NCBI GenBank assembly: GCA_963808705.1
Contig: CAWEHB010000001.1
Location: 72,397 to 136,396 of the forward strand
DNA: 64,000 nucleotides
Direction of reading: 5' to 3'
Source: an uncultured Actinomycetota bacterium
GTDB taxonomy: Bacteria; Actinomycetota; Actinomycetes; Streptosporangiales; Streptosporangiaceae
The notes under the pieces are model-generated. The model was not told where the DNA came from. It worked only from the letters and a program-made list of their open reading frames with translations, and searched no databases. The first letter of the stretch is position 1. The number at the start of each line of letters is the position of its first letter. Both the position numbers and the translations under genes were made by a program. This document shows, in pieces, positions 28,582 through 64,000 of the stretch.

Positions 28582-28680
28582 CCCGCCGACCGCCCCTTTG
28601 ACCCGCCGACCGCCCCCTTGGGCTGCCGACCGCCCCCTTGGGCTGCCGACCGCCCCCTTGGGCTGCCGGACCTCCTTCAG
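28561..28680. repeat. Tandem array of a 20-bp unit (about 6 units, 4 nearly perfect) between convergent stop codons
   Basis: Units: gagccgccgaccctcccttg / acccgccgaccgcccctttg / acccgccgaccgcccccttg / ggctgccgaccgcccccttg x2 / ggctgccggacctccttcag. The first unit encodes the last codons and stop of the ligase gene. Confidence 0.85.
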
Positions 28681-30269: not shown

Positions 30270-30345
30270 CCCGCCATCACCTGTCATTACTCGCGTCACC
30301 CTGCCCGGCCAAACGCCGGCTCCGGAGGGTGCCCGGAGCCGGTCG

Positions 30346-33484: not shown

Positions 33485-33516
33485 CGCTCTTCCTTCCGGT
33501 ACCCCGGCCTCGTCTG

Positions 33517-34419
33517 TTATGACGACAGACCGTGCGTCGTGGTTGGGGTGAGTCTCATCCGGGCGGGGGCCAGCGGGGTGCTCCGTGCGCTGATGATCCG
33601 GGCCGGCGCCTCGCCCGCGGCCGGGGTGTCCTGCACCGACGCCTGCACGGCCAGCGCCCCGCCGTACCCGGCGTGCCGGACCCGGAACACCACGGCGCGG
33701 TCCTGGCCGGGCCCGTCCAGCGGGATGAACCAGAACTCCCCGGCGCAGCCGGCCCGGCGGTAGCGCACCACCGGCCCGAACGGGCCCGCCGCCTGCGCCA
33801 CGGCCGCGAACACCCCGTGCCCGGCCAGCGCGCGCAGCCCGGCCCGGGCCGGGAACCACCACGGCCGGCCGCACACCGGCGTGCGCGGCAGCGCCCGCAT
33901 GCTCAGCCCCGCCAGCACGGCCCCGCCGGCCGCCGCACCGGCCCAGAACCAGGGACGGCCGAACGCGCCCGCCTCCCCGCGCAGGAAGACCACGCTGGCC
34001 ACCCCGGCCACGGCCAGCACCGCGTCCCGGGCCAGCTCCCGCCAGGAGACCGTCTCCGCCGGCCGCTGCGCCGCGCGCCACTGGATGCAGCCGCAGCCGC
34101 CGGGCACGCCCTTCGCCCGCGCGTACCCGAGCAGGGCGCAGAAACCGGCCCCCAGCGCGGCCATGGCCGCCCCGCCCGCCGCCGGGTACACCCCGGCGCA
34201 CACGACCACGCCGACCGCGCACTCCAGGCCGCCGGCCGCCGCCTCCACCCGCCGCCACCGGCGCTTGGTCATCCCCAGCGCGCGCCGGACCGCGCTCAAG
34301 GAAGGCACCTGGCGGGCGGCCCGGTACAGCTTGCTCGCCCCGGCCACCACCAGCAGCCCGCCGCAGCTGGCCACCCACCCGGCCAGGAACAACGACGCAC
34401 CCGAACCGATCTGGGCCAC
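33517..34419 (-). CDS. MauE/DoxX-like membrane protein, copy B (has its own stop)
   Basis: Track ORF 33517..34446. GTG at 34419 is preceded by AAGAAGGGA and gives VAQIGSGASLF..., parallel to copy A MVEIGSGASLF. Confidence 0.75.
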   Translation of the reverse strand: MAQIGSGASLFLAGWVASCGGLLVVAGASKLYRAARQVPSLSAVRRALGMTKRRWRRVEAAAGGLECAVGVVVCAGVYPAAGGAAMAALGAGFCALLGYARAKGVPGGCGCIQWRAAQRPAETVSWRELARDAVLAVAGVASVVFLRGEAGAFGRPWFWAGAAAGGAVLAGLSMRALPRTPVCGRPWWFPARAGLRALAGHGVFAAVAQAAGPFGPVVRYRRAGCAGEFWFIPLDGPGQDRAVVFRVRHAGYGGALAVQASVQDTPAAGEAPARIISARSTPLAPARMRLTPTTTHGLSS

Positions 34420-34463
34420 CCGGCATCCCTTCTTAACCGCCACCACACGTTTTCGGGCCGCCG

Positions 34464-41752: not shown

Positions 41753-41905
41753 TAGGCGGGTTGTGTAGCAGGCCGTAGGGCCTTTTGGCCCTACGATGAC
41801 AAACGAATGTCCCTGTGTCGCAGGCGCAGCGGCAAGGCATCCTTGGCCTTGCGGTTCAGATCATCGATCTTCGTCCGAGATGAACGAGATGAAGAGGCAC
41901 CCGAG

Positions 41906-43603
41906 ATGACGATGCCCAGCGCGCTGGAGATCTCCCGGCAGGCCTCGCTCAAGCCGATCCCCGACATCGCCGAGGAGATGGGGATCCCGCCGGGAATGGT
42001 GGAGCTGTATGGCGAATACGTCGCCAAGATCGGGCTGGATGCCGTCGAGGCGCTCGCGGACCGGCCCCGCGCCCGGTACGTGGTCGTCACCGCGGTCACC
42101 CCGACGCCGCTCGGCGAGGGCAAGACGACGGCGGCGGTAGGCCTGGGGGAAGCGATGTATCACATCGGCCGGTCCGCGACGGTCACGATCCGCCAGGGGT
42201 CGATGGGCCCGACGTTCGGGATCAAGGGGGGCGCGGCGGGCGGCGGTTACAGCCAGGTAGTGCCGTTCGAGAAGCTGAACCTGCACCTGACCGGGGACAT
42301 GCATGCCGTCACCGCGGCGCACAACCAGCTCGCCGCGATGCTGGACAACCACCTGCACCAGGGCAACGCGCTGGGCATCGACCTGCGCAACATCACCTGG
42401 CGGCGGGTGCTGGATGTCAACGACCGGGCACTGCGCAACATCGTCATCGGGCTGGGCGCGCACGAGGACGGCGTGCCCCGCCAGTCCGGGTTCGACATCA
42501 CCGCGGCCTCGGAGGCGATGGCGGTGCTGGCGCTGGCGGTGTCGCTGCGCGACATGCGGCAGCGGCTGGGAAAGATCGTGGTCGGCTACACCGGCGCGGG
42601 GGTGCCGGTCACCGCCGAGCAACTGCGGGCAGCAGGCGCGATGACGGTGATCATGCGGGATGCGCTCAAGCCGAACCTGCTGCAGACGCTGGAGAACACC
42701 CCGGTGCTGGTGCACGCTGGCCCGTTCGGCAACATCGCGCACGGCAACTCGTCGGTGCTGGCCGACCTGATCGGCATCCGCGCCGGGGACTTCCTGATCA
42801 CCGAGGCCGGTTTCGGCGCCGACATGGGCGCCGAGCGCTTCTTCAACATCAAGTGCCGGGACTCCGGCCTGGTCCCGGACGCCGCGGTCGTGGTGACGAC
42901 GGTCCGCGCGCTCAAGGCTCAGTCCGGCAACCACAAGATTGTCGCCGGCAGGCCGCTGCCGCCCGCCTTGCTGGCGGAGAACCCTGGCGAGGTCCACATC
43001 GGCGGGGCGAACCTGCGCAAGCAGGTCGAGAACGTGCTGCTGCACGGGGTGACGCCGGTGGTGGCGATCAACGCGATGCCGGGCGACTTCGCCTCCGAGC
43101 ACGCCGCGATCGGCGAGATCGCCGCGGATATGCGGGTACGCTGCGCGGTCACCACTCACTTCGCCGACGGCGGCCGGGGCGCCGCCGAGTTGGCCGAGGC
43201 GGTGGCCGAGGCCGCGGAGCAGCCCGGCGAGTTCCGGTTCCTGTACCCGGCGGAAGCGCCGCTCCGGGAGAAGATCGAGACGATCGCGACCCGCATCTAC
43301 GGTGCCGACGGGGTGGACTACGCTCCGCTGGCCGCCCGGCAGCTGGACAGCTACGAGCGTAACGGGTTCGGCACGCTCCCGGTCTGCATCGCCAAGACCC
43401 CGCTGTCGCTGTCGCATGACCCGTCGCTCCGTGGCGTCCCCACGGGCTGGCGGCTGCCCGTGCGGGAGGTGCGCGCCTCGGTCGGAGCGGGGTTCATCTA
43501 CCCGATCTGCGGCGAGATGCGGACGATGCCTGGCCTGGCCTCCACCTGCGCCGCCGAGCGCATTGACATCGATGATGACGGCAACATCGTCGGCCTGGCG
43601 TGA
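41906..43603 (+). CDS. fhs: Formate--tetrahydrofolate ligase
   Basis: TPTPLGEGKTTAAVGL, GPTFGIKGGAAGGGYSQVVP, and a length of about 565 aa. ATG at 41906 with a GAAGAGG SD. Confidence 0.95.
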   Translation: MTMPSALEISRQASLKPIPDIAEEMGIPPGMVELYGEYVAKIGLDAVEALADRPRARYVVVTAVTPTPLGEGKTTAAVGLGEAMYHIGRSATVTIRQGSMGPTFGIKGGAAGGGYSQVVPFEKLNLHLTGDMHAVTAAHNQLAAMLDNHLHQGNALGIDLRNITWRRVLDVNDRALRNIVIGLGAHEDGVPRQSGFDITAASEAMAVLALAVSLRDMRQRLGKIVVGYTGAGVPVTAEQLRAAGAMTVIMRDALKPNLLQTLENTPVLVHAGPFGNIAHGNSSVLADLIGIRAGDFLITEAGFGADMGAERFFNIKCRDSGLVPDAAVVVTTVRALKAQSGNHKIVAGRPLPPALLAENPGEVHIGGANLRKQVENVLLHGVTPVVAINAMPGDFASEHAAIGEIAADMRVRCAVTTHFADGGRGAAELAEAVAEAAEQPGEFRFLYPAEAPLREKIETIATRIYGADGVDYAPLAARQLDSYERNGFGTLPVCIAKTPLSLSHDPSLRGVPTGWRLPVREVRASVGAGFIYPICGEMRTMPGLASTCAAERIDIDDDGNIVGLA

Positions 43604-43729: not shown

Positions 43730-44470
43730 ATGGCGAATGTCTCGGCGTATCTGCGCCCTGCCACCCTCGACGACGCGCTCGCGTGCCTGGGCCGTCCCGG
43801 CGCGGTCGTGGTGGGCGGCGGGACGATAGTGAACACGACCCATGCTCTCGAGCCCGTCCTGGTCGTCGACCTTCAGGACCTTCACATCGACGCGATTGAG
43901 CGGGACGGCGAGGATGGGCTCCTGATCGGTGCTACCGCGACCTTCCAGCGATTGGCCGACGACGTCAGCGTCCCGGTGGCGATCCGGGAGGCAGCCCGGC
44001 GCGAGGAGCCCAGTACCCTCCGGACGCTGGCGACCGTCGGCGGCCTGGTGGCCACGGCCGATCCGTCCAGCGAGCTTCTGGCGACCCTCCTCGTCCACGA
44101 CGGCGAGGTCTGGCTGGCCGGACGCGGTGGCGTGCACACCGTGAAGCTCGCGGCGCTGCTGGAGGACAGCCGACAGCTGGCGAACAAGATCATTACGGCG
44201 GTCAGGATCGAGACCGGGGGCGCCACGGCCATGGAGCGCACGGCCCGCACCCGGGCCGACCGGGCGATCGTGGCCGCGGTAGCCCGGCGCACGACAGACG
44301 GGAGGCGCCGCCTGGCGCTCACGGGGGTGGCCGGAACGCCCTTGCTCGTGGCTCCCACGCCGGACACGGCCAACGGCCTCGACCCGCCGGGCGACTACCG
44401 CGGGTCGACGGAGTACCGCCGTGCCCTCGCGGCCGTGCTGGCCAGGCGCGCGTTGGAGGAGATCGGCTGA
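43730..44470 (+). CDS. Xanthine-dehydrogenase-family FAD-binding (medium, CoxM/XdhB-like) subunit
   Basis: VVVGGGTIVNT..., and TLATVGGLVATADPSSELLATLLVHDGEVWL parallels the TIGGNL..ASP..D..P.LLA pattern. Its stop overlaps the next ATG (ATGA-type coupling at 44470). Confidence 0.8.
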   Translation: MANVSAYLRPATLDDALACLGRPGAVVVGGGTIVNTTHALEPVLVVDLQDLHIDAIERDGEDGLLIGATATFQRLADDVSVPVAIREAARREEPSTLRTLATVGGLVATADPSSELLATLLVHDGEVWLAGRGGVHTVKLAALLEDSRQLANKIITAVRIETGGATAMERTARTRADRAIVAAVARRTTDGRRRLALTGVAGTPLLVAPTPDTANGLDPPGDYRGSTEYRRALAAVLARRALEEIG

Positions 44471-47418
44471 TGGACGTCAAGATCACCCTTAACGGCCGTG
44501 CGCTCGAGCTCAGCTGTGGGCCCGGCGAGACGCTTCTCGCGCTGCTCCGGCGCGAAGGATGCGTGAGCGTCCGGTTCGGGTCGGAGACCGGCGAGACCGG
44601 CGCGGCCGCGGTACTGCTGGATGGCCGGGTTGTTGCGGCTGACGTCTTGCTGGCCGCACAGGCCGGCGGTCACGAGGTGACCACGGTGGAGTCCCTCAAC
44701 GTGGCCACCGGCGAGCTTCACCCCATCCAGGAGGCCTTCGTCGAGACAGGCGCGCTGCAGTCGGGGTATTCGGCGGGCGCCATGGTGCTCGCCGCCAAGG
44801 CGCTCCTGGAGCAGAACCCGGACCCCGGCGAGAGCGAGATCCGGGACGCCCTGTCCGGAATCCTTGACCGCGAGACCGGCTACGTGAAGGTCGTCGCGGC
44901 GGTACAGCGCGCCGCGGCGCTGCTGCGCGGCGAGAAGCCCGAGCCGGTGCAGCCGGTGGCCATCGAGCCGCTCGCCGGCCCCGTGCCTGCCGCGCCGGGC
45001 TGGTGCGCCACGGATCGTGACGGCTGGCCGGCCGTGCCCGGGGTCGTGGCGTCGCCCGATGTGGCCGAGACCGTCGTTGTCGGCAGGCCTGAGCCCAAAG
45101 TGGACGCGCTGCGGCTGGTCAAAGGCAATCCCGCCTTCACCGACGATGTGGAGCCGCGCGGGATGCTGCACGCGAAGGTGCTCCGAAGCCCGCACGCCCA
45201 CGCCCGGATCATCGCGATCGACGACGCTGAGGCCAGGGCCATGCCCGGAGTGCACGCGGTGCTGCACTGCTTCAACACGCGGCGGGTCAAGTACGCATCG
45301 GGAGGCCAGAGCTGGCCCAACCCGTATCCGTGGGATCAGGTGAGCTTCGACGACAAGGTCCGCCATGTGGGCGACCGGGTGGCGGCGGTGGGGGCGGAGA
45401 CGGCGGAGCTCGCGGCCGCGGCCTGCCGCCGGATCAAGGTGACCTATGAGGTCCTGCCGGCGGTGTTCGACGAGTTCGAGGCGCTGGCCGAGGGAGCGCC
45501 CCGGATCCATGACGAGCAGGACTCCGTCGGCATCCACGACGTCTCGCGCAACATCAGCTCACACATCGAGGGTCAGACCACGCCGGACATCCAGGCCGCC
45601 CTGGCCCGTGCGGATCACGTGTTCGAACAGACCTTTCACCTTCATCAGGTGCAGCACTGCTCCATCGAGCCGCACGTCGCCATCGGCTGGCTCGACGAGG
45701 ACGAGCGGCTGGTGCTGCGCACGTCGACGCAGGTGCCCTTCCATGTCCGGCGCATGGTCGCCCCGCTGCTCGGCCTGCCGGTCAAGCGGATACGGGTGAT
45801 CAAGCCCCGGATCGGCGGCGGCTTCGGCGGCAAGCAGGAGATGCTGATCGAAGACATCGTGGGCCACCTGGCGCTGGCCACCCGCCGGCCGGTACGCCTG
45901 GAGCTGACCCGCGAGGAAGAGTTCACCTCGGCGCGCACCAGGCACAAGCAAACGATCACCTTCCGCACCGGGATCAACGATGACGGAAAGCTCGTGGCCC
46001 TGGACATGAAGGTGGTCGCCAACACCGGCGCCTACGGCGTTCACGGCTTCACCGTGCAATCCGTCACCGGGCTGCGGGGCCTGTCCTCCTACAACTGCCC
46101 GGCCAAGCGCTACCAGTGCGACGTTGTGTACACCAACCGGCTGGTCGCCGGCGCGATGCGCGGCTACGGCGCGCCGCAGGGCGTCTTCGCGCTCGAGTCC
46201 CACATGGACGACATCGCCCGGGCACTGGGCATCGACCCGGTGGAACTGCGACGGCGTAACTGGGTCGGGCTTGGCGACGCCTTCGACATCGCGCCAAGAC
46301 TCGGTGAGCGGGGAGGCGTCGACGACATCGCCCCCGAAGACCTGCCGCGCATCACCAGTTGCGGCACCGAGGAATGCGTGGCCCAGACGCTGCGGGCCAT
46401 CGGCTGGGACCGGCGCCACGACGAGTCGTGGAAGCGCCCGCCCGGGCGGCCCAGCATCCGCCGGGGGATAGGGTTCGCCCTCTGTGTCATGGGCTCGGGC
46501 ATCCCCTTCGTCGACATGGGCGCGGCCTCGATCAAGATGAACGACGATGGTTCGTTCAACCTGCTGATCGGCGGCACGGACCTCGGCACCGGCGCTGACA
46601 CCGTGGTCGCTCAGATCGCGGCTGAGGTGCTCGGAGTGGACGTCGATGACATCATCGTGTACGCCGCCGACACCGACGTCACGCCGTTCGATGTCGGCGC
46701 CTACGCGTCGGGCACCACCTACATCACCGGCATGGCCGCCAAGCAGGCGGCCGAGGCGGCGCGGGCACGGATCGCGCAGCGGGCCGCGCGGATGCTGGGC
46801 CTCGATGAGTCGGCTCCGATCGAGCTGCGTGACCGCCGGGCGTGGGCGGGCGACGGCCGGTCGGTATCACTGGCGGACCTGGCGCTGCATGTGCTGCACG
46901 CCGAGGATCAGGAACAGATCATGGGCACGGCGTCGTACCTGGCCCGCGACTCCCCGTCGCCCTTCGCCGCCCAGGCCGCGGAGGTCGAGGTGGACGTCGA
47001 CACGGGCCAGGTCACCGTCAGCAAGCTGGTGACCGCCGTGGACTGCGGCGTGCCCATCAACCCGCTGACGGCGAGCGGGCAGGTCGAGGGCGGCGTGATG
47101 ATGGCCCTCGGCTACGCCCTGTGCGAGGAACTCGTGCTCGACGACGACGGGCGGCCGGTCAACGCCAGGCTCGGCCCCTACTGGATCTACCGGGCGGACG
47201 ACGCCCCGGCTACCGAGGTGTTCCTCGTTCAGACGAACGAGCCGTCGGGCCCGTTCGGGGCCAAGGCGGTCGGCGAGATTCCCACCGTGGGGGTCGCCCC
47301 CGCGGTGCGAAACGCCATCCTGGACGCCACCGGCGCCGCCATCAACGCCACACCGTTCACCCCCGAGCGCGTCTGGCAGGCCCTGCACGCGCCCCGGGGT
47401 GGCGGGCCGCGGCCATGA
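44470..47418 (+). CDS. Xanthine-dehydrogenase-family molybdopterin-binding subunit fused to an N-terminal [2Fe-2S]-like domain that lacks all eight Cys ligands
   Basis: The Mo domain has RIGGGFGGKQE, AGAMRGYGAPQG and GPFGAKAVGEIP. The N-terminal 160 aa align with the canonical small subunit at 53412..53963, but every ligand Cys is replaced (see findings). Confidence 0.9.
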   Translation: MDVKITLNGRALELSCGPGETLLALLRREGCVSVRFGSETGETGAAAVLLDGRVVAADVLLAAQAGGHEVTTVESLNVATGELHPIQEAFVETGALQSGYSAGAMVLAAKALLEQNPDPGESEIRDALSGILDRETGYVKVVAAVQRAAALLRGEKPEPVQPVAIEPLAGPVPAAPGWCATDRDGWPAVPGVVASPDVAETVVVGRPEPKVDALRLVKGNPAFTDDVEPRGMLHAKVLRSPHAHARIIAIDDAEARAMPGVHAVLHCFNTRRVKYASGGQSWPNPYPWDQVSFDDKVRHVGDRVAAVGAETAELAAAACRRIKVTYEVLPAVFDEFEALAEGAPRIHDEQDSVGIHDVSRNISSHIEGQTTPDIQAALARADHVFEQTFHLHQVQHCSIEPHVAIGWLDEDERLVLRTSTQVPFHVRRMVAPLLGLPVKRIRVIKPRIGGGFGGKQEMLIEDIVGHLALATRRPVRLELTREEEFTSARTRHKQTITFRTGINDDGKLVALDMKVVANTGAYGVHGFTVQSVTGLRGLSSYNCPAKRYQCDVVYTNRLVAGAMRGYGAPQGVFALESHMDDIARALGIDPVELRRRNWVGLGDAFDIAPRLGERGGVDDIAPEDLPRITSCGTEECVAQTLRAIGWDRRHDESWKRPPGRPSIRRGIGFALCVMGSGIPFVDMGAASIKMNDDGSFNLLIGGTDLGTGADTVVAQIAAEVLGVDVDDIIVYAADTDVTPFDVGAYASGTTYITGMAAKQAAEAARARIAQRAARMLGLDESAPIELRDRRAWAGDGRSVSLADLALHVLHAEDQEQIMGTASYLARDSPSPFAAQAAEVEVDVDTGQVTVSKLVTAVDCGVPINPLTASGQVEGGVMMALGYALCEELVLDDDGRPVNARLGPYWIYRADDAPATEVFLVQTNEPSGPFGAKAVGEIPTVGVAPAVRNAILDATGAAINATPFTPERVWQALHAPRGGGPRP

Positions 47419-47557: not shown

Positions 47558-47590
47558 CCGCGCAGACCACGCGAGCCGCGCGGTTTTCTT
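47558..47590 (+). terminator. Candidate intrinsic terminator after the XDH-like genes
   Basis: ccgcgc - 14-nt loop - gcgcgg followed by TTTTCTT. The stem is short and the loop is long. Confidence 0.3.
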
Positions 47591-47720
47591 GGCTGGCGAT
47601 TCATTGCGGTCGCCAGCGCGGTCGCGGGATCCGTTGAGGAGCGAGGCAAGGGAGGGTGGCGGTGGAAACCATGGGCCGGTCGGGCAGCGCCGCGTCAGGC
47701 GCACAGGCGGTGAGGTAGCG

Positions 47721-49205
47721 ATGAGCGGCGACATCAGCGTCGGGGCGAGCGGAGAACGTAAGACCGAGCAGTCGCAGGAGTACGCGGCCTTCAAGGTCGA
47801 GCAGCGGGGGATCGACCTGATCCCGGACACGCCCGCCGAACGCAAGATGAAGCCCTCGGGCCTGTTCTGGCTGTGGGCCGGCGCGGTGTTCAACGTGGAG
47901 TTCTTCTTCTACGGAACCCTGATCATGACCTTCGGCCTGTCGGTGGGGCAGGCGATCTTGGCCATCGTGGTCGGCAACCTGTTCTACGCGTTGCTCGGAT
48001 GGGCCAGCCTGCAGGGACCGGAGACGGGCACGACGGCGTTCATGGTCAGCCGCGCGCCGTTCGGGCAGAACGGGAACCGCATGGTGGCGCTGTTCAACTG
48101 GGTGACCCAGGTCGGGTTCGAGATCGAGGGCGTCTATTTCGTGGTCGCCACCGTGATCCTGCTGTTCCTCCACTACGGGACCACGCTCGGGACCCCGGCC
48201 AAGATCGTGATAATCATCCTGGCGGCGGCGGTGCAGCTGGTCATGCCCTTCTTCGGCCACGCGACGATCACCCAGATGCTCCGCTACCTCGCCTACGCGT
48301 TCATCGTCTTCTTCGCGGTCCTGGCCGGCTTCACCTTCAACCGGCTGCACCTGAGCACCTTCCACCAGCCCTCGGCGTCGTGGGCCGTATGGACCACCGC
48401 GCTGGTGCTGATCATCTCGGTGGGCGGCCTGGGGTGGACCGAGAACGGCAACGACTACTCGCGCTACCTGCCCCGCAGGACCCCCAAGACCCGGACGTTC
48501 TGGTCGGCGTCGCTGGGCGGCGCGATCCCGTCCCTGCTGCTGGAGATCCTCGGGGTGCTGGCCTTCACGGTCACCAAGAAGACCGTCGGCATCACCCAGC
48601 TCGGCGTCCCGCAGAGCTTCCCCGGCTGGTTCGTGGTGCCATTCCTGATCTTCGCCATCTTCCAGCTGTTCGCCATCAACACCATCGATCTGTACTCGTC
48701 CGGCGTCACGCTGCAGGCGCTGGGCATCCCGATCAAGCGCTGGGGCGCGGTGATCATCGACACCGTGGTGTGCGCCGTGGTCACCGGGATCATCTTGTTC
48801 CACGGCAACTTCTACGCGGACTTCGCCGGGTTCCTGCTCTACATCGTGGTGTGGCTGTCGGCGTGGTTCGGCATCCTCATGGTGGACTACCTGCTGCGGC
48901 GGGGGCGCTATGACCCGCCCGCGCTGGCCGCCGACCGAGGCGGGCTGTACTGGCGTAACGGCGGCATCCACTGGCCCGCCATCATCGCCCAGGTGCTTGG
49001 CATGGTGGCGTCGCTGATGTGGATCAACGCCGATTTCGCCGTCCCGTCCTACATCGGACCGATCTCCAACCACTTCCCCGGCCTGCAGGGCGGGGACCTC
49101 AGCTGGGCCATCGGCATCGTGGTCGGCGCCGGCGTCTACTACCTGCTCGCCCGCACGTCCGTGCGACACGAGGGCGAGGTGACCCCGGACATCGGCACGG
49201 CCTGA
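47721..49205 (+). CDS. NCS1-family purine/cytosine-type permease
   Basis: Internal ATG of track ORF 47589..49205. 12 predicted TM helices. IDLIPDTPAERKMKPSGLFWLWAGAVFNVEFFFYG is typical of CodB/NCS1. Confidence 0.9.
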   Translation: MSGDISVGASGERKTEQSQEYAAFKVEQRGIDLIPDTPAERKMKPSGLFWLWAGAVFNVEFFFYGTLIMTFGLSVGQAILAIVVGNLFYALLGWASLQGPETGTTAFMVSRAPFGQNGNRMVALFNWVTQVGFEIEGVYFVVATVILLFLHYGTTLGTPAKIVIIILAAAVQLVMPFFGHATITQMLRYLAYAFIVFFAVLAGFTFNRLHLSTFHQPSASWAVWTTALVLIISVGGLGWTENGNDYSRYLPRRTPKTRTFWSASLGGAIPSLLLEILGVLAFTVTKKTVGITQLGVPQSFPGWFVVPFLIFAIFQLFAINTIDLYSSGVTLQALGIPIKRWGAVIIDTVVCAVVTGIILFHGNFYADFAGFLLYIVVWLSAWFGILMVDYLLRRGRYDPPALAADRGGLYWRNGGIHWPAIIAQVLGMVASLMWINADFAVPSYIGPISNHFPGLQGGDLSWAIGIVVGAGVYYLLARTSVRHEGEVTPDIGTA

Positions 49206-49295: not shown

Positions 49296-51020
49296 TCAGC
49301 CTGGCGCCACGCCGGTCAGCTCGAACCGGTTCACGTCGACCAGGCCCCGGTCGGTGATCCTCAGTTCGGGGATCACCGACAGGGCCAGGAAGCTCAGGTG
49401 CATGAACGGGGCCGCGATGCCGACGCCGAGTGCCGCGGCTGCGGCATGCTCGACCGCCTCCACCTCCGCGGCCACGCCGGCCACGGGCTTGTCGCTCATC
49501 AGCCCGCCGATCGGCAGCGGGACCTCGGCGATGACCCGGCCGTCGAGTATCGCCACCTGCCCGCCGCCGATCTCGGCCAGCCTGGCCACGCCGGCCGCCA
49601 TGTCGGCGGGCCCGGAGGCGTCCAGGGCCCCCACGACCATGCAGTTGTGCGCGTCGTGGGCCACGGTCGAGGCGATGGCGCCGCGCGCTAGCCCGAAGCC
49701 GTGCACGTAGCCCAGGCCGATGCGGCCGGTCTCATGGTGCCGCTCCACCACGCCGATGCGGGCGATTCCCGCTGACGCGTCCGTGACATCGAGCACGAGG
49801 TGCCTGGTGGTGAGCGTATCTGGCTCGATCCCGATTACCCGCGCCAGCCCGCCTGCGGGCGGCGCCAGCGCCAGCGCCGCTGGCCCGGGCGGTGACGCCA
49901 GGTGGACCGAACGGCGCATCCAGCCGGGCGCCGGCACCGAAGGCACGGTCCCGGCGATCACCTGCCCGCCCTCGGCGGCCAGTTTGCCCGCCCGATAGAC
50001 CCGTACCGGCGAGAGGCGATCGAGGGAGTCGAAACAGAGCACGTCCGCCTGATAGCCCGGGGCCAGCCAGCCAAGATGGTCGAAGTTGTGATACTCGGCT
50101 GGGTTCGCCGTGGCGAGCACGAGGGCGTCCTCCACCCGCACACCGCAGGAAACGGCCAGCCTGACACAGTCATCCACGTGGCCTTCGGCGACGATCGTGT
50201 CCGGCTCGCGGTCGTCGGTGCAGAGCGCGACCCGCGGCGTTCCGTGCTGCAGCACGGTCGGGATCAGGGTGGCCAGGTTACGGCTCGCCGACCCCTGCCG
50301 GGCAAAGATCCACATTCCCTTGCGGCGCTTCTCGGCCGCCTCCGCCAGCGTCGTGCACTCGTGGTCGGACTCGATCCCTGCGGCCAGGTAGGCGTCGAGC
50401 TGCCGGCCGGCCAGCCCGGGTGCGTGCCCGTCCACCCGGCGGCCGCCGGCGGCGGCGATCTTCGCCAGCAGTTCGGCATCGCCGGCCACGACGCCGGGAT
50501 AGTTCATCACCTCGGCGACTCCGATCGCGCCGAACTCGTCGAGCAGCTGGCGGACCTCGGCGGTGTGCAGCTCCGCCCCCGGGCTCTCGAACGGCGAGGC
50601 CGGCACACAGCTGGACGCGCAGATCCCGAAGGTGAACGGCAGGCCCGCGGCCGCCTCCGCCAGGGCCGCGACGCCACGGACGCCGAACACGTTGGCGATC
50701 TCGTGCGGGTCGGCGGCCACCGCCGTGGTGCCATGCGGGAGGACGGCCCGGACGAACTCATCAACCCAGAGCTTGGTCGACTCCAGGTGCATGTGAGCGT
50801 CGATGAAGCCAGGCGTCAGCGCGGCGCCGGACATGTCGGCGACCTCTCGCGCATCGCGCGCGCCCCATCCGGCGATCACGCCATCGGCCACGGCCAGGTC
50901 CGTGTCGACCCATTCCCTGGTGCCGGGGACGAAGACTCTCCCGCCGGTGAGCAGGAGATCAGCTGGCTCGTCGCCGCGAGCGACGGCCAGGACGTGCGGC
51001 GTGCCTTTGCGTGCGGACAC
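49296..51020 (-). CDS. ade: Adenine deaminase
   Basis: LTPGFIDAHMHLESTKL, GTTAVAADPHEIANV, DGHAPGL.., SDHECT, HDAHNCMVVG. Length 574 aa. Confidence 0.9.
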   Translation of the reverse strand: MSARKGTPHVLAVARGDEPADLLLTGGRVFVPGTREWVDTDLAVADGVIAGWGARDAREVADMSGAALTPGFIDAHMHLESTKLWVDEFVRAVLPHGTTAVAADPHEIANVFGVRGVAALAEAAAGLPFTFGICASSCVPASPFESPGAELHTAEVRQLLDEFGAIGVAEVMNYPGVVAGDAELLAKIAAAGGRRVDGHAPGLAGRQLDAYLAAGIESDHECTTLAEAAEKRRKGMWIFARQGSASRNLATLIPTVLQHGTPRVALCTDDREPDTIVAEGHVDDCVRLAVSCGVRVEDALVLATANPAEYHNFDHLGWLAPGYQADVLCFDSLDRLSPVRVYRAGKLAAEGGQVIAGTVPSVPAPGWMRRSVHLASPPGPAALALAPPAGGLARVIGIEPDTLTTRHLVLDVTDASAGIARIGVVERHHETGRIGLGYVHGFGLARGAIASTVAHDAHNCMVVGALDASGPADMAAGVARLAEIGGGQVAILDGRVIAEVPLPIGGLMSDKPVAGVAAEVEAVEHAAAAALGVGIAAPFMHLSFLALSVIPELRITDRGLVDVNRFELTGVAPG

Positions 51021-51034
51021 CGGTCACCTCCGGG

Positions 51035-53431
51035 TTACATTAGCTGCTGCTGGGCGGAGACCTGATGGTGGTAGTAAGGCACCGGCCACTGTCCCGGCAC
51101 GTCCGGGACCGGCGGCGGCCCGCTGGTCGGCCGCGGCGGGCGCAGGCCGATCAGGTCGTCCGGGGTCACCGGAGCCCGGTTCAGTTCGCGGCCGGTGGCG
51201 TCGCGCAGCGCGGCGACGATGGCCGCGGTCGAGACGATGGCCGGTGCCTCGCCGATGCCCTTCAGGCCGTAGGGCGCCGCCGGGTCCGGCTCTTCCACCG
51301 CGTGGGTCTCGACGGGCGGCATGTCCGGGAACGTGGGGATCAGGTAGTCGGTGAATGACGGGTTCCTGACCACCCCGTTCTCGGTCTGGAGCTCCTCCAT
51401 CAGCGCGAAGCCCAGCCCCTGGGCGGTGCCCCCTTCTATCTGGCCCTCGAAACCGAGCGGGTTCAGCACCTTCCCGGCGTCGATCGCCGCCGCGACGTGC
51501 AGGACCCGGGCGATGCCCAGCTCGGTGTCCACCTCGACCACCGCGCGCTCGGCCGCGAACGTGAAGGCCGCATGGATATCTCCCTGCCCGGCGGAGTCGA
51601 AGCCCGCGGTCGGCCGGTGATGATAGACCGCGGTCTCGGCGATCGGTTCCGCTAGCAGGCCGGCCAGGCCGGCGACCGGCTCGCCCCCCGCAACCAGCAT
51701 GCCGTCGCGGAGTTCCGCCGGCCTCGGCAACGGCCCGTCGGCCCCGGCGACACGATCGCGCGCCCGCGCGGCGAGCCGGTCGCGGACCAGGCGGCAGGCC
51801 ATCTGCACCGCACCGCCGGCCATCATGGATTGCCGGGACGCCGAGGTGGAGCCCGCGTTGCCCATGCTGGTGTCGGCGGCGTGCAGCACCACGTGCTCGA
51901 CGCCAAGCTCGGTGCGGGCGATCTGGGTGAGGACCGTGGTCAGGCCCTGACCCATCTCCACCGCAGCAGTGTGGATCTCGGCGACAGGGGTGCCCTGGCT
52001 CAGGCTCAGCGTCACGCGCGCGGTGGCCGAGTCGTCGAATCCCTCGCTGAACGCGGTGTTCTTGAACCCCACCGCGTACCCCACGCCGATGGCCAGGCCC
52101 TCCCCGTGATTCGCATTCCCGGTCCCGCCGGGGTAGTCAAGCTGGTCGCGGCCGTGCGCGGGCTCGGGGACCGGCATGGGCGCGCGCGCACACAGCTCAA
52201 TCAGCTCGCGCACCGGTGCGCTGCCCGCTACCACCTGGCCGGTCGGCAGAACGGAGCCGGTGTGCAGCGCGTTGCGCAGCCGCAGTTCCACCGGGTCCAT
52301 CCGCAGTGCCGCGGCCAGCTTGTCCATCTGGGCTTCGTGGGCGAAGCAGACCTGCGGCGCCCCGAAGCCACGCATGGCCCCGCACGGCGGGTTGTTCGTG
52401 AAAACGAGGGTCCCCTCGATCCGGGCGTTGGGCAGCTCGTACGGGCCTGCCGCGAACGTCGCCGCGTTCCCGAGGACCGCGGGCGAGGACGAGGTGTAGG
52501 CGCCACCGTCGAACAGCAGCCTGGCGTCGACCACGACGAGCCGGCCGTCGCGGGCCGCGCCGTGACGAAGCCAGATCCGTGACGGGTGGCGGTGCACGTG
52601 CCCGAGGAAGGACTCCTCGCGGCCAAAGCTCATCTTGACCGGCCTGCCGGTGCGCAGGGCGAGCAGGGACGCGTGAATCTGCATGTGGATGTCCTCGCGG
52701 GCACCGAATGCGCCGCCCACCCCGGCCAGGCTGATGCGTACCTTCTCCGGCGGCAGCTTCAGGCAGGGAGCGATCTGTTCCTGGTCCACATGCAGCCACT
52801 GGGTCGCCACGAGCAGGTGGATGCCTCCGTCCGGCGCGGGTACGGCCAGCCCGGCTTCCGGGCCCAGCGGTGCCTGATCCTGCATGCCGGTTTCGTAGTA
52901 ACCGTCCACCCACACATCCGCCTCGGCCGCATCCGGGTTACCGTGCAGGATGTGCACGTGCCGCAGCACGTTGCCGAACTCGTGCAACTGTGGCGCCTCC
53001 GGCCGCAGCGCGGCCTCCATGTCGGTCACGACCGGAAGCGGCACCCAGTCGACGTCGATGAGCGTCGTGGCCTGGTGCGCGATCGCAGGTGTGTCGGCGG
53101 CGACTATGGCGACCGGCTCCCCGTGATAGCGGACGAGGTCGTCGGCCAGGACCGGCTGATCATCGAAGTTCAGCCCGAACGTCCGCTTGCCCTCCAGGTC
53201 GGCAGCGAGCAGGACGGCGTGAACGCCTGGCAGCGAGGCGGCCGCGGTCGCGTCAGCACGACGGATCCGCGCGTGCGGGTGGGGCGATCGCAGCGTTGCC
53301 CCCCAGAGCATCCCGTCAGCCCAGAGGTCGCTGGCATAGTCGAACGTCCCGGTCACCTTGGGGATGACGTCGACCCGGACGGCGCTCTCGCCAACCCCGC
53401 CGCGGACCCGGCTAGGAGTCGTGGTGATCAT
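51035..53431 (-). CDS. Xanthine-dehydrogenase-family molybdopterin-binding large subunit
   Basis: GVGGAFGAREDI, NNPPCGAMRGFGAPQ, PYGLKGIGEAP. Length 798 aa. Confidence 0.9.
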   Translation of the reverse strand: MITTTPSRVRGGVGESAVRVDVIPKVTGTFDYASDLWADGMLWGATLRSPHPHARIRRADATAAASLPGVHAVLLAADLEGKRTFGLNFDDQPVLADDLVRYHGEPVAIVAADTPAIAHQATTLIDVDWVPLPVVTDMEAALRPEAPQLHEFGNVLRHVHILHGNPDAAEADVWVDGYYETGMQDQAPLGPEAGLAVPAPDGGIHLLVATQWLHVDQEQIAPCLKLPPEKVRISLAGVGGAFGAREDIHMQIHASLLALRTGRPVKMSFGREESFLGHVHRHPSRIWLRHGAARDGRLVVVDARLLFDGGAYTSSSPAVLGNAATFAAGPYELPNARIEGTLVFTNNPPCGAMRGFGAPQVCFAHEAQMDKLAAALRMDPVELRLRNALHTGSVLPTGQVVAGSAPVRELIELCARAPMPVPEPAHGRDQLDYPGGTGNANHGEGLAIGVGYAVGFKNTAFSEGFDDSATARVTLSLSQGTPVAEIHTAAVEMGQGLTTVLTQIARTELGVEHVVLHAADTSMGNAGSTSASRQSMMAGGAVQMACRLVRDRLAARARDRVAGADGPLPRPAELRDGMLVAGGEPVAGLAGLLAEPIAETAVYHHRPTAGFDSAGQGDIHAAFTFAAERAVVEVDTELGIARVLHVAAAIDAGKVLNPLGFEGQIEGGTAQGLGFALMEELQTENGVVRNPSFTDYLIPTFPDMPPVETHAVEEPDPAAPYGLKGIGEAPAIVSTAAIVAALRDATGRELNRAPVTPDDLIGLRPPRPTSGPPPVPDVPGQWPVPYYHHQVSAQQQLM

Positions 53432-53963
53432 CGGCCCTCCCGGAAGCGCGGTGCCCGTCGATCCCCCCTGAAGCGCGGTGCGCGCTGGCCCCTCTCGCGG
53501 CCAGGTGGACCGCGCTGATGATCTTCTGGTAGCCGGTGCACCGGCAGAGGTTGCCTGCCAGCGCCTCCCGGATCTGCCCGTCTGAGGGGTCTGGCTCCTG
53601 GCGGAGCAGGTCGTGAACGGCCATCACCAGTCCCGGGGTGCAGAAGCCGCACTGGACCGCGCCGGCGTGCGCGAACGCTTCCTGGACCGGGTCCAGCTCG
53701 CCGCTGGCCGCTAGCCCTTCCACCGTGACGACATCCCGGCCCGCGGCCTGCCCGGCCAGCACCAGGCACGAGCACACCAGGCCTCCGGCCAGGTAGACGG
53801 CGCAGGAGCCGCATTCCCCCTGCTCGCAGGCGTTCTTCGTGCCGGTCAGGTGCAGCCCGTCGCGCAGGACGGTCAGCAGGCTCTCGCCGGCGCCGACGTT
53901 GTCGATCACGCGCGGTTCGCCGTTCACGGTCAGGCGCAGTCTCATCCCGCCCGCCCGTCTCAT
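53412..53963 (-). CDS. (2Fe-2S)-binding small subunit of an XDH-family enzyme (canonical, all Cys present)
   Basis: CEQGECGSC..C, QCGFCTPG and NLCRCTGY. There are two in-frame ATGs (53963 and 53945) because of an 18-bp duplication. It overlaps the downstream gene by 20 nt. Confidence 0.9.
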   Translation of the reverse strand: MRRAGGMRLRLTVNGEPRVIDNVGAGESLLTVLRDGLHLTGTKNACEQGECGSCAVYLAGGLVCSCLVLAGQAAGRDVVTVEGLAASGELDPVQEAFAHAGAVQCGFCTPGLVMAVHDLLRQEPDPSDGQIREALAGNLCRCTGYQKIISAVHLAARGASAHRASGGIDGHRASGRADDHHDS

Positions 53964-53976
53964 CCCGCCCGCCCGT
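53941..53976. repeat. 18-bp tandem duplication (ctcatcccgcccgcccgt x2) duplicating the ATGA stop/start junction
   Basis: Read directly at 53941-53958 and 53959-53976. Confidence 0.9.
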
Positions 53977-54853
53977 TCCCTTGCGGCCCCTCTCTCAGGT
54001 AGTCGTCCCAGGCCCAGTCAAGGACCCGGCCGGCCATGACCCGCAGGGCCTGGGCGCGGTAGGCGGCCGTCCCGCGCACGTCGTCGACCGGCCGGGCCGC
54101 CGACGCGACGAGATCGGCGAACTTGCTCTTCACGGCGTCGCCGAGCGGCCGGGGCGCCTCCCAGAGGCCGCCCTCGGCGAGCACGCCCTCCAGGAAGCGC
54201 TCGGCCCCGGCCGCCTGCAAGGGCACCGGCCCCGCCGAGCCGATACCCGTGCCTACCCGGCCGCGGTCCGGGTGCAGCGCCAGGGCGAACGAGCACACCG
54301 CGATGACCATGGCGTTACGGGGCCCGACCTTGGCAAACTGCTGCGGTCCGCTGGCCCGCGGCACGTACACCGCGCTGATCAGCTCATCCGGCGCCAGCGC
54401 GTTCTGCTTGGGTCCCGTGAAGAAGTCCGTGATCGCGATCCGCCTGGTCCCGGCCACGGAGGCGACCTCGACCTGTGCCCCGGCGGCCAGCAATGGCGGA
54501 TGAGCGTCACCGGCCGGGGAGGCCGTGCCCAGGTTGCCGCCGATCGTGCCGCGGCGGCGGATCTGTGGCGAGCCGACCGTCCGCGCCGCCAGCGCGAGCG
54601 CCGGGAAGTCGCGCCGCAGTGCCGGTATGAGGTGCTCATAGGTCGCGGTGGCGCCGAGCCGCAGCCACCCGTCGTCCGCGGACACCTCATCCAGGCGTGG
54701 AACCCGGCCGAGGTCGATGAGCGCAACGGGGTGGCACCGGTGGAAGTTGAGCTCCACCAGGAGATCTGTGGCGCCCGCCACGGGAAGCCCGTCGGGGAGC
54801 CCGGCCCTGGCCTCCAGGGCCTCGGCCCAGGCGGCCGGCTGCAGGAAGTGCAC
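53960..54853 (-). CDS. XDH-family FAD-binding subunit
   Basis: VAGATDLLVELN, and GTIGGNLGTASPAGDAHPPLLAAGAQV. GTG start. The stop overlaps the FeS gene ATG. Confidence 0.9.
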   Translation of the reverse strand: MHFLQPAAWAEALEARAGLPDGLPVAGATDLLVELNFHRCHPVALIDLGRVPRLDEVSADDGWLRLGATATYEHLIPALRRDFPALALAARTVGSPQIRRRGTIGGNLGTASPAGDAHPPLLAAGAQVEVASVAGTRRIAITDFFTGPKQNALAPDELISAVYVPRASGPQQFAKVGPRNAMVIAVCSFALALHPDRGRVGTGIGSAGPVPLQAAGAERFLEGVLAEGGLWEAPRPLGDAVKSKFADLVASAARPVDDVRGTAAYRAQALRVMAGRVLDWAWDDYLREGPQGNGRAG

Positions 54854-54866
54854 CGGAATCGCTCCT

Positions 54867-55844
54867 CTAGCTCATGGTCAGCGCCATGACTGCCTTCTGG
54901 GCATGCAGGCGGTTCTCTGCCTCGTCGTAGACGGCCGACTGCGAGCCGTCGATCACCGCGTCGGTGACCTCGATGTTGCGGTCCGCGGGCAGCGGGTGCA
55001 TGAAGATGGCGTCCGGGCCGGCCGTGGCCATCCGGGGCTCGTCGGTGATCCACGCCTTGTATGAGTCGATGATCTTCGCGCCCTCGGCCGCGTCCGGCGT
55101 GGTGAGCAGGGCCCCCCAGCTCTTGGCGTAGACGACGTCGGTGCCGCGGATGCCCTCGTCGAAGTCGTGCAGGATCTCGAAGCCGGCCCGGGCCCGCCGG
55201 GCATTCTCCTGTGCCTGCTCGATTATCTCCGGCATGAGCATGAACTCGGGCGGGTGGACCAGTCGGACGTTCATGCCGAACCGCGGCAACAGCAGCGCCA
55301 GGCTCTGCGGGACGCTGATCGGCTTCTGGTAGCTGGATGCGTACGCCCAGCTGATGGTGGCGGTGCGGCCCCGCGGATCACCGAAGCGCTCGATGATCGT
55401 CATCAGGTCAGCCAGCGCCTGATGGGGGTGGTAGATGTCGCACTGCATGTTGAGCACGGGTACCCGGCTGGCCTCGGCGACCTCGCGCAGGTACTTGTTG
55501 CCTTGCTGCCAGTCGACGTAGCGGATCGCGATGCCGTCGTTGTAGCGGCCGAGGATCTCGCCGATCTCCCTGGCCGTGTCGCCGTGCGCGATCTGGGTGG
55601 TCCGGCTGTCGATGAACATCGCATGCCCGCCGAGCTGGGCCATGCCCGCCTCGAACGAGGCCCGGGTGCGGGTGCTGGGGAAGAAGAACAGCATAGCCAG
55701 GACCTTGTCCCGCAGGTACGGGTGCGGCCGCCCGAGCGCGCGGTCGCGCTTGAGCTCGAACGCGACGTCGAGCAGCGTGGTGATCTCGTCCTTGGTCCAC
55801 TCCTGCAGGTCGATGAGGTCGCGGCCGCGAAGATTGGTCTGCAT
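54867..55844 (-). CDS. Ornithine/putrescine-carbamoyltransferase-family enzyme; substrate unknown (YgeW/oxamate-CTase-type role possible)
   Basis: FFFPSTRTRASFE (carbamoyl-phosphate site), HPHQALAD, and HPLPADRNIEV in place of the OTCase HCLP. Confidence 0.85.
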   Translation of the reverse strand: MQTNLRGRDLIDLQEWTKDEITTLLDVAFELKRDRALGRPHPYLRDKVLAMLFFFPSTRTRASFEAGMAQLGGHAMFIDSRTTQIAHGDTAREIGEILGRYNDGIAIRYVDWQQGNKYLREVAEASRVPVLNMQCDIYHPHQALADLMTIIERFGDPRGRTATISWAYASSYQKPISVPQSLALLLPRFGMNVRLVHPPEFMLMPEIIEQAQENARRARAGFEILHDFDEGIRGTDVVYAKSWGALLTTPDAAEGAKIIDSYKAWITDEPRMATAGPDAIFMHPLPADRNIEVTDAVIDGSQSAVYDEAENRLHAQKAVMALTMS

Positions 55845-55853
55845 GGCCGGCTC

Positions 55854-56816
55854 CTACCCGGCCGCGCCGAGGACCAGGGCGAGCAGCGCCATACGCAGGA
55901 CCACGCCGTTGAAGGCCTCGGCCCAGTACCTGTTGTGGCGGGTTTCGTCCACGTCCGGGGGAAGCTCGTCCATCCGGGGCAGCGAATGCAGGATGATCGA
56001 GTCGCTCTTGGCCTTGCTGCGCAGCAGCTCCCTGGTGACCCGGTAGGCGGCCGGGGTGAGCGGGTGCTCCGCGGTGGGCTCCACCCGCGACTTCTCGTAG
56101 TCGGCCTGCACCACCGGCTCCATGTAGATGACGTCGGCCTCCGCGATGCACTTCTCCGTGCTCTCCGCCTCCCGGTACTGCGTGTTCCGCTCGTCAAGCT
56201 CCGCCCTGAACTCCGGCAGCAGGGACATCTCCGGCGGGCTGACCACGAACGCCTCCATGTCGAACTGCGACATCGCGTACAGGATCGAGTGCATCGTGCG
56301 CATACGCATGTCGCCGACGCACAGCACCTTCAGCCCGTCGAGCCGGCCCCTGGACAGCCAGATGGTGTAAAGGTCGGTGAGCACCTGGGTCGGGTGCTCA
56401 CCCCAGCCGTCCCCGCAGTTGATGACCGGCACCGACGCCCAGCGGGCGGCCTCGGCCGGCGCGCCCTGCTGGTAGTGGCGCATGGCGATGACATCGCCGT
56501 AGTACTCCAGCATGTGCACGGTGTCCTTGATCGACTCCTGGTAGAAGTCCCCGGCCCTGGTCATCTTCATGTCGGCGAAGCCGAGCACGTGCCCCCCGAG
56601 CCGGTGCATGGCCGCCTCGGTGGCCATCCGGGTGCGCGTGCTCGGCTGGTAGAAGGCGGTGAGCAGGATCTTGTCTTTCAGCAAGCCGCCGTTGCGGCGT
56701 TCCTCCGCGAAGGGCCGGAGCTCGTCGCATACCCGGAAGATCTGGAAATACTCATCACGCTCCATGTCCTTCAGGGACAGGATGTCCCGGCCGAGAAAGC
56801 TTCGCATGGCAGCCAC
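55854..56816 (-). CDS. Aspartate-carbamoyltransferase-like (PyrB-family) enzyme
   Basis: YQPSTRTRMATE, GEHPTQVLTDL and LHSLPR. Length 320 aa. Confidence 0.85.
   Translation of the reverse strand: MAAMRSFLGRDILSLKDMERDEYFQIFRVCDELRPFAEERRNGGLLKDKILLTAFYQPSTRTRMATEAAMHRLGGHVLGFADMKMTRAGDFYQESIKDTVHMLEYYGDVIAMRHYQQGAPAEAARWASVPVINCGDGWGEHPTQVLTDLYTIWLSRGRLDGLKVLCVGDMRMRTMHSILYAMSQFDMEAFVVSPPEMSLLPEFRAELDERNTQYREAESTEKCIAEADVIYMEPVVQADYEKSRVEPTAEHPLTPAAYRVTRELLRSKAKSDSIILHSLPRMDELPPDVDETRHNRYWAEAFNGVVLRMALLALVLGAAG

Positions 56817-63320: not shown

Positions 63321-64000
<680 letters not shown>

Follow-up and report, generated by a model that had tools for sequence, protein, structure and literature searches.

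Two [2Fe-2S] clusters are treated as a defining and obligatory part of every xanthine oxidase family enzyme. Within that family the closest described relative of the protein considered here is Escherichia coli XdhD (b2881), which co-purifies with YgfM (b2880) and converts urate to 2,8-dioxopurine with reduced nicotinamide adenine dinucleotide (NADH) (Li et al., Life Metab 2025, PMC12507026). The activity is also discussed in PMC12990295, residue E606 has been proposed to orient the urate (Li et al., PMC12507026), and one paper on the E. coli enzyme models it on a normal xanthine dehydrogenase (XDH), assuming an XDH-like electron path. Here we report that a protein that appears to be of this type lacks every cysteine needed to hold the clusters. 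[quoted passage not shown]

Like the window pair, E. coli XdhD-YgfM consists of a short FAD subunit followed by a fusion of a ferredoxin-like module to molybdenum (Mo) domains from which the eight ligands are absent. The two pairs share an active-site signature and both lie near SsnA-type and carbamoyltransferase genes. The window pair differs in its replacement residues, in having Arg at the position of bovine R880 and in scoring below the cut-offs of the NCBIfam models TIGR03313 and TIGR03312; its cluster differs in having a luciferase-like (F420-type) reductase in place of YgfK and an extra paralogue of the DOPDH type. DOPDH (XdhAC) of Clostridium sporogenes has iron-sulfur (FeS) domains but no FAD subunit, is selenium-dependent, works with methyl viologen rather than NAD(P)H, interconverts only urate and 2,8-dioxopurine, and carries the signature F1009V plus A1078T/S (bioRxiv 10.1101/2025.04.24.650524). 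It resembles the XdhD-like protein in being an FeS-Mo fusion of the same urate/2,8-dioxopurine pathway but keeps both clusters, and the window copy of this type is a separate gene (59308..61905).

Three other systems share parts of this architecture. The aldehyde oxidoreductases of Desulfovibrio gigas and D. desulfuricans (MOP; 1sij, 1vlb, 1dgj) are the best whole-chain structural match and have the same domain order, but they contain two [2Fe-2S] clusters, lack an FAD subunit and are only 27–28% identical. 4-Hydroxybenzoyl-CoA reductase (1rm6), of the same family, has an FAD subunit and is itself a reductive dehydroxylase, although it consists of three separate subunits and carries an extra [4Fe-4S] cluster besides the two [2Fe-2S] clusters. 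Canonical PucCDE/XdhABC, of which the window also encodes a copy (51035..54853), has the same three modules and Pfam domains but all eight cysteines and a different active site.

Results

All eight cluster ligands are replaced in the XdhD-like protein

Residues 1–149 of the XdhD-like protein align with PucE, the canonical small subunit encoded on the opposite strand of the window, with 44% identity (E = 5e-36). In the plant-type site (C-x4-C-x2-C-x11-C) PucE residues C46, C51, C54 and C66 are replaced by S38, T43, A46 and D58, and in the site proximal to the molybdenum cofactor (Moco; C-x2-C...C-x-C) C105, C108, C140 and C142 are replaced by S98, S101, D133 and E135. Thus, at the former cluster I site QCGFC has become QSGYS and CRC has become LDRETGY. 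An earlier note, made from the window sequence alone, had claimed that the first ~160 residues align with the small subunit and that every ligand has been lost. Both claims are borne out by the PucE alignment and by an alignment of homologues. The note was right that the fourth plant-type ligand is gone, but it probably assigned the wrong residue: the C-x4-C-x2-C-x11-C spacing identifies the ligand as C66 (D58) rather than the non-ligand C64 (A56), a correction that leaves the overall conclusion unaffected.

The comparison with Pfam that the note had proposed gave a Fer2_2 match of 72 bits for the module (cut-off 30), below the 112 bits of canonical PucE, and PF00111 (Fer2), which scores 30.5 bits in PucE, gave no match at E <= 0.01 in the XdhD-like protein. 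By sequence and fold the module is a CoxS/XdhC-type small subunit, but one without the cluster ligands of that type. With cysteine at 0 of the 8 ligand positions, the protein lacks one mark of the xanthine oxidase/carbon monoxide dehydrogenase (CODH) family, the two [2Fe-2S] clusters, held by four Cys apiece, that connect Moco with the electron exit. The same eight positions are invariant cysteines in ~45 fused relatives and, because the replacements are nearly invariant within the XdhD-like clade, the change cannot be put down to chance. Judged from these alignments, the module cannot ligate two [2Fe-2S] clusters and the canonical Moco-FeS-FeS-FAD wire is absent, as the earlier note had argued. 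A compensating cysteine motif elsewhere was ruled out: the YgfM-like protein contains only one Cys, and the conserved cysteines of the fusion are scattered through the Mo domain.

The Cys-less module is conserved, under purifying selection and predicted to fold

Two sets of relatives were compared. The first consisted of 119 full-length database homologues of >=72% identity, all of which (119/119) are Cys-less. Their ligand positions read S/T/A/D and S/S/D/E almost without exception, with rare conservative changes, and D133 and E135 are present in 119/119. The second set came from a scan of one genome per species, which gave at least 579 stretches encoding relatives. The related-locus counts given here refer to the best 80 of these at least 579 loci, 77 of which carry full-length genes (56–91% identity), and 75 of the 77 species-level homologues lack the ligand cysteines. 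The hosts include Streptosporangiaceae, Nocardioidaceae, Thermoleophilia, Acidimicrobiia, Anaerolineae and Caldilineae, among others.

Mean identity across the related loci is 64% in the Cys-less module, 67–74% in the Mo domains and 30% in the linker between them. Ratios of nonsynonymous to synonymous substitution (dN/dS; Nei-Gojobori, against five relatives) are 0.13–0.19 for the module, 0.12–0.23 for the Mo part and 0.39–0.71 for the linker, indicating that purifying selection acts on the Cys-less module as strongly as on the Mo domain. The word fossil, which had been applied to this domain, thus fits the cluster sites but not the domain as a whole.

These data also dispose of the possibility, raised earlier, that the gene is decaying or that errors in sequencing or assembly account for the missing cysteines. 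Frameshifts do occur in three or four of the 80 related loci (L073, L076, L078 and L026), but all of these are draft metagenome-assembled genomes and are also Cys-less. Moreover, the window reading frame is uninterrupted, independent assemblies show these residues again in 119 close and 75 more distant homologues, and the dN/dS of 0.13–0.19 is not that of a pseudogene. Given this conservation we regard decay or artefact as ruled out for practical purposes. The frameshifts themselves may be either assembly errors or occasional pseudogenes, and the N-terminal modules of those four genes have likewise lost the cysteines.

An AlphaFold2 model of the XdhD-like protein had a predicted local distance difference test score (pLDDT) of 83 and a predicted template modeling score of 0.89. 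Within the module pLDDT was mostly 83–94, dropping to 68–77 at the former ligand loops, and the linker fell below 50 at residues 172–182. The whole chain superimposed on the Desulfovibrio aldehyde oxidoreductases 1sij and 1dgj with template modeling (TM) scores of 0.82/0.88, and Foldseek matched it to xanthine oxidase/CODH family structures with E values of ~1e-68 to 1e-55. From this superposition the relic module would occupy the usual place of the cluster-bearing domains, and the fold is predicted with confidence to have outlived its ligands.

The gene pair is of the XdhD/YgfM type

The earlier note could not place the enzyme. Several lines of evidence identify the two genes, insofar as sequence comparison can, as an XdhD/YgfM-type pair. 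Homologues carry the Joint Genome Institute (JGI) label 'putative selenate reductase molybdopterin-binding subunit', which is also the label of members of the E. coli XdhD clade. Among NCBIfam models, TIGR03313 scores best with the XdhD-like and TIGR03312 with the YgfM-like protein. The XdhD-like protein is 37–41% identical to E. coli K-12 XdhD (37% over the full length) and the YgfM-like protein is 31% identical to E. coli YgfM. A short FAD subunit lies directly upstream of a ferredoxin-like/Mo fusion of the expected ~950–1000 residues, and the stop of the first reading frame overlaps the start of the second by one base; the genes are translationally coupled. That an FAD-type subunit is encoded just upstream had been seen before and is confirmed by its FAD_binding_5 and CO_deh_flav_C domains. 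Its GGT, T-x-GG and RGS..YR motifs are conserved in 49 orthologues, and its dN/dS of 0.25–0.51 denotes a looser constraint than that on its partner.

The Mo part matches Ald_Xan_dh_C, MoCoBD_1 and MoCoBD_2 with 82, 274 and 251 bits, all over the Pfam cut-offs. Its best sequence match in the PDB is the alpha subunit of 4-hydroxybenzoyl-CoA reductase (1rm6, E = 4e-106); no solved XdhD structure was found in the PDB. The signatures GGGFGGKQE and MRGYGAPQG, noted previously, are present together with the catalytic-Glu motif GAKAVGEIP. Equivalences to bovine residues (767, 801–802, 880, 1009, 1078 and 1261) are our assumption, taken from motif alignment. On this numbering the Moco-site residues Q421, R564 and E936 (bovine Gln767, Arg880 and Glu1261) and the GGGFGGK loop at 449–455 are present and conserved in the clade. 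A signature common to E. coli XdhD and the 8-Cys relatives comprises Q421, K455-Q456, E613, S676-G-I, Y745-A746 and E936; by position these are K-Q at bovine 801–802, the LGE loop, G-S/T-G/A-I at F1009, GAYAS at A1078 and the catalytic Glu. The counterpart of E606 in E. coli XdhD is E613, within LGERGG. The canonical PucD of the window lacks this signature, having E at bovine 802, no E606 loop and no GAYAS. Neither is the XdhD-like protein of the DOPDH type, since it scores 434 bits against TIGR03311 (cut-off 830) and has S676 and Y745 at F1009 and A1078. The Mo domain therefore looks catalytically intact, as far as its motifs tell.

Three cysteines of the Mo domain, C543, C631 and C859 (46096-46098, 46360-46362 and 47044-47046), are invariant or nearly so in both clades, the actinobacterial and that of E. 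coli, with C631 located 18 residues past the E613 (E606) loop. A link of these residues to a labile selenium or sulfur ligand is possible.

Two further suggestions of the earlier note must be revised. The Cys-less state is not an unusual variant peculiar to one gene, for it is common to E. coli XdhD. As Cys-less E. coli XdhD has a reported urate-reducing activity, a purely structural, non-redox role of the whole protein is also unlikely.

The clusters were probably lost in place and more than once

A search of 1.84 billion cluster representatives extended the comparison to deeper relatives. Among them the fused proteins closest to the XdhD-like protein retain all eight cysteines: P0121 (55% identity) and P0127, P0128 and P0136 (~40%), of which P0127 and P0128 (~980 residues) are 42–43% identical to the XdhD-like protein. 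The Anaerolineae loci L074 and L077 (55–58% identity) also keep all eight. P0124 (943 residues, 47% identical) is intermediate, as only the FAD-proximal site has been lost (D/G/D/G) and the Moco-proximal site keeps C/C/C/C. E. coli XdhD (L001:23317-26187) has D/A/D/S and S/N/S/D at the eight positions, and all members of its clade (119/119, P0271–P0390) are Cys-less, despite the RefSeq/NCBIfam name of the clade, 'molybdopterin-dependent oxidoreductase Mo/Fe-S-binding subunit'. P0127 and P0128 are relics of the opposite kind: their eight FeS cysteines are kept whereas their Moco motifs are degenerate (GGGFGG to TSGSAG or NSGDA, R880 to C or Y, and the catalytic Glu to T or N).

Bootstrapped neighbor-joining trees were built from 709 Mo-domain columns with 300 replicates. 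The window clade and the E. coli clade each received 100% support, as did a second Cys-less clade from Anaerolineae (DTDQ/SNDE), which grouped with the 8-Cys L077 in 73% of replicates. The window clade, the Anaerolineae clade, L074, L077 and P0121 came together in 98%. The Cys-less forms were monophyletic in 0% of the 300 replicates, so these neighbor-joining trees give no support to one ancestral loss common to the window clade and E. coli XdhD. Replacement of the N-terminal domain was ruled out as a source of the mixed Cys-less and Cys-containing states, because N-terminal identities follow the Mo-domain tree (the best match of L077, at 60%, is the Cys-less L075), which argues for loss in place. 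The replacement sets of the three Cys-less lineages differ (STAD/SSDE in the window clade, DTDQ/SNDE in Anaerolineae and DADS/SNSD in E. coli) and 8-Cys lineages stand between the clades, so the loss in the window clade looks independent of that in E. coli. The parsimonious reading of these sequences is at least three independent complete losses plus one partial loss. Across all of them the Mo active-site signature is unchanged, being common to 0-Cys and 8-Cys members.

The differing replacement sets bear on whether clusters might still be bound, either through Asp, Glu or Ser or with a free small subunit, for example PucE, providing them in trans. Asp or Glu does stand at three of the eight ligand positions, the gene for a canonical small subunit lies 9 kb away, and one related locus (L009) has a PucE-like reading frame just downstream. 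Nevertheless, the replacements of the three lineages include Ala, Gly and Thr and give no conserved alternative ligand set, contrary to what the earlier note had allowed for, and we know of no [2Fe-2S] site lacking any Cys ligand. Most related loci are without a free small subunit, and the relic module is itself modeled in the canonical small-subunit position. We consider cluster binding by either means very improbable.

Repeated loss also invites the suggestion that no internal wire is needed. In a transhydroxylase or dismutase, Mo(VI) would be reduced by one purine and re-oxidized by urate at the same site; such an enzyme requires no internal electron chain and hence could lose its clusters repeatedly. 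Consistent with this scheme, the conversion of xanthine by way of urate to 2,8-dioxopurine involves no net redox change. The scheme would also accommodate the complete loss of both clusters at least three times, the relative that lost only the FAD-proximal site, the more relaxed YgfM-like subunit, and ten Chloroflexota loci (L060-L067, L069 and L080; several are relatives of Promineifilum) that have no FAD subunit within 10 kb. The XdhD-like genes of these ten loci read ST[AGS]D/SSCE, with one Cys regained or retained, and in L062, the only FAD-less locus examined, a DHO_dh-family (UacX-like) gene lies directly upstream (L062:8912-9919). However, xanthine is left unconsumed by an E. coli strain deleted for xdhA, even though XdhD is active in the same medium, and E. 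coli XdhD-YgfM works with NADH (PMC12507026). C. sporogenes DOPDH interconverts urate and 2,8-dioxopurine only, and most lineages keep the FAD subunit, translationally coupled and under purifying selection. On balance a same-site transhydroxylase seems improbable.

The locus is a purine-catabolic island of the F420 type

From ~41.8 kb to its end the window is a purine-catabolic island (Table 1) that holds, in its full F420-type form, the cluster for reductive purine degradation through 2,8-dioxopurine. An F420-type (luciferase-like) variant of the uricolytic cluster has been noted in Chloroflexota (Li et al., PMC12507026). The luciferase-like gene of the window lies between SsnA and the carbamoyltransferases, the slot of YgfK or UacX in other uricolytic clusters. 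The tandem carbamoyltransferases may stand in for YgeW plus YgeY and act on the two ureido groups of diureidopropionate; homologues of YgeY, HyuA and YqeA are absent from the 64-kb window. The second FeS-Mo fusion (865 residues, eight Cys intact, no FAD subunit) has V and T at bovine F1009 and A1078, the signature reported for C. sporogenes DOPDH, and is probably a second enzyme, encoded beside SsnA, for the step from urate to 2,8-dioxopurine.

Table 1 Features of the gene pair and of the surrounding island, in window coordinates
Feature	Coordinates	Strand	Evidence or remark
Formate-tetrahydrofolate ligase	41807..43603	+	By eye from translation; system membership uncertain
YgfM-like short FAD-binding subunit	43730..44470	+	246 aa; FAD_binding_5 72 bits, CO_deh_flav_C 26 bits
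Cys-less double ferredoxin-like module, residues 1-155	44470..44934	+	Fer2_2, identity to PucE
Former plant-type site (FAD-proximal, cluster II): S38, T43, A46, D58	44581..44643	+	
Former Moco-proximal site (cluster I): S98, S101, D133, E135	44761..44874	+	
Poorly conserved linker, residues 156-205	44935..45084	+	
Molybdopterin part (hammerhead, MoCoBD_1, MoCoBD_2)	45085..47418	+	XdhD-type active-site signature
Purine/cytosine-family permease	47589..49205	+	Transp_cyt_pur 153 bits
Adenine deaminase	49296..51020	-	TIGR01178 497 bits, cut-off 472
Canonical three-subunit xanthine dehydrogenase	51035..54853	-	TIGR03196 847 bits, cut-off 784
PucD	51035..53431	-	
PucE, all Cys intact	53412..53963	-	
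PucC	53960..54853	-	
OTC/YgeW-like carbamoyltransferase	54867..55844	-	34% identity to E. coli YgeW
ATC-like carbamoyltransferase	55854..56816	-	Tandem paralogue of 54867..55844
Luciferase-like oxidoreductase, probably F420-dependent	56823..57863	-	Bac_luciferase 230 bits; codon-position GC profile
SsnA-type amidohydrolase	57884..59311	-	NF005540 414 bits (cut-off 444), TIGR03314 407; 37% to E. coli SsnA
Second FeS-Mo fusion, selenium-dependent-XDH/XdhAC (DOPDH) type	59308..61905	-	TIGR03311 980 bits, cut-off 830
PLP-fold (PALP) gene, 456 aa	61950..63320	-	PALP 148 bits
C-terminal part of ~524-aa PALP gene, cut by window end	63317..64000	-	Full-length homologue L003:7534-9108

Of the 80 related loci, ~55 have an FAD-subunit reading frame 0–130 nt upstream on the same strand, 43 carry SsnA-like genes, 30 luciferase-like oxidoreductases and 42 YqeB/XdhC-like or YqeC genes. 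Haft and Self in 2008 reportedly found that selenium-dependent molybdenum hydroxylases co-occur with the accessory genes yqeB and yqeC (and selD); the 64-kb window contains no such gene. The formate-tetrahydrofolate ligase gene adjoins the XdhD-like pair in 0/80 loci, and its annotated start is probably ~33 residues too far N-terminal.

This context bears on the possibility that an external partner (ferredoxin-like, flavin or F420-dependent) feeds the Mo/pterin side and that YgfM is mainly structural. Such a partner would make up for the absent FeS wire. Some clades have no FAD subunit at all, 8-Cys relatives such as L077, and also XdhAC, function without one, and the clades fall in F420-using phyla with luciferase-like genes as frequent neighbors. 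On the other side, no candidate besides YgfM is conserved beside the gene across related loci, the relic module is predicted to sit next to the pterin, leaving little access, and the E. coli pair has a reported NADH-dependent activity. An external partner is thus unlikely, although it deserves somewhat more credit than a same-site transhydroxylase.

At the far end of the window an apparent 212-aa orphan reading frame (63317..63955) was rejected as a gene of its own because it is part of a gene cut by the window end, with no stop codon upstream in the window. The ~524-aa PALP gene to which it belongs is always paired with the 456-aa PALP gene, and neither resembles E. coli YgeX. Outside the island, and unrelated to the XdhD-like pair, two paralogous DUF4232 proteins of 540 and 553 residues are encoded a few kilobases apart (28677..30299 and 32765..34426, minus strand).

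Discussion

The reading we favor, at a probability of about 65%, is that the pair is an XdhD/YgfM-type enzyme of the reductive 2,8-dioxopurine pathway in which a cluster-free module is kept as a scaffold. By homology with E. coli, the reaction of the pair would most likely be the interconversion of urate and 2,8-dioxopurine, carried out at an intact Moco site. The N-terminal double-ferredoxin module would bind no iron-sulfur clusters, and its role would be that of a cofactor-free scaffold by which Mo domains and FAD subunit keep the arrangement of canonical xanthine dehydrogenase.

Several observations weigh against this reading. The XdhD-like protein scores 682 bits against TIGR03313, under the cut-off of 1102 and tied with the XdhA model, and the YgfM-like protein scores 78 bits against TIGR03312 (cut-off 241), so the former is not a strict equivalog of E. 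coli XdhD. At the bovine R880 position it has Arg (R564), whereas the E. coli clade has Gln. YqeB, YqeC, YgfK and HyuA were not found in the 64-kb window. The DOPDH-type fusion may perform the urate reduction, in which case the XdhD-like pair would act on another purine. The E. coli activity itself, the only one assayed for a pair of this type, was recorded as an end-point assay by liquid chromatography-mass spectrometry with 10 µM enzyme and without kinetics or metal analysis (PMC12507026). The trees on which the count of losses depends are distance-based only. Finally, a flavin with no relay to the Mo is hard to reconcile with normal turnover.

How electrons would cross the protein is the least certain part of the proposal. 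Repeated loss, one loss confined to the FAD-proximal site and a clade without an FAD subunit suggest that the canonical chain is dispensable in this subfamily, and this apparent dispensability keeps non-canonical routes alive. Relay-free transfer from flavin to pterin across the relic module is ranked first, at slightly less than even odds. Direct donation to the Mo/pterin side with YgfM mainly structural comes second, as a possible but lesser candidate, and a ping-pong mechanism with both half-reactions at the Mo is a distant third, further weakened by the unconsumed xanthine of the E. coli xdhA deletion strain. Other routes account for the small remainder. In bovine XDH and CODH structures the spacings between centers are about 15, 12 and 8 Å. 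From these canonical spacings the flavin-pterin edge-to-edge gap is estimated at about 20–24 Å. By the Moser-Dutton rule (ΔG≈0, λ≈0.7 eV) one tunneling step over that distance would run at roughly 0.04–10 per second, a slow rate, yet one that fits what the end-point assay of the E. coli enzyme recorded. No aromatic residues specific to the Cys-less forms, such as might form a hopping path, were found in the relic module; Y100 and Y138 occur also in the 8-Cys relatives.

A broader claim can be put forward only tentatively, and we would sooner bet against it than for it. This is that XdhD-type enzymes, including that of E. coli, are the first FeS-free molybdoenzymes in the xanthine oxidase family, with at least three losses and with the Mo reduced by bypassing the FeS chain. 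Electrons might come from a partner or substrate that acts directly at the Mo/pterin site, or they might pass from flavin to pterin with no relay.

Neither the protein family nor its function in E. coli is new. In contrast, the complete absence of the FeS ligands, its family-wide conservation and its recurrence appear to be undescribed in the open-access papers searched; no mention of missing FeS ligands in XdhD was found there or in the supplement of Li et al. The Cys-less subfamily is large and widespread, with relatives encoded in at least 579 species-level genomes, mostly of Actinomycetota and Chloroflexota, plus the enterobacterial XdhD clade. E. coli XdhD-YgfM has newly been reported to be the enzyme through which urate enters degradation in the gut, which gives it medical interest in gout. 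If the clusters are truly absent, another account is needed of the reported route from NADH through FAD to Mo, database names such as 'Mo/Fe-S-binding subunit' are mistaken, and the engineering of uricolytic probiotics should not presume FeS assembly for the urate step. The 8-Cys, 4-Cys and 0-Cys series would then be a natural system for studying how an electron wire is lost and, should the FeS-free reading prove true, these enzymes would represent a new electron-transfer logic for molybdenum hydroxylases.

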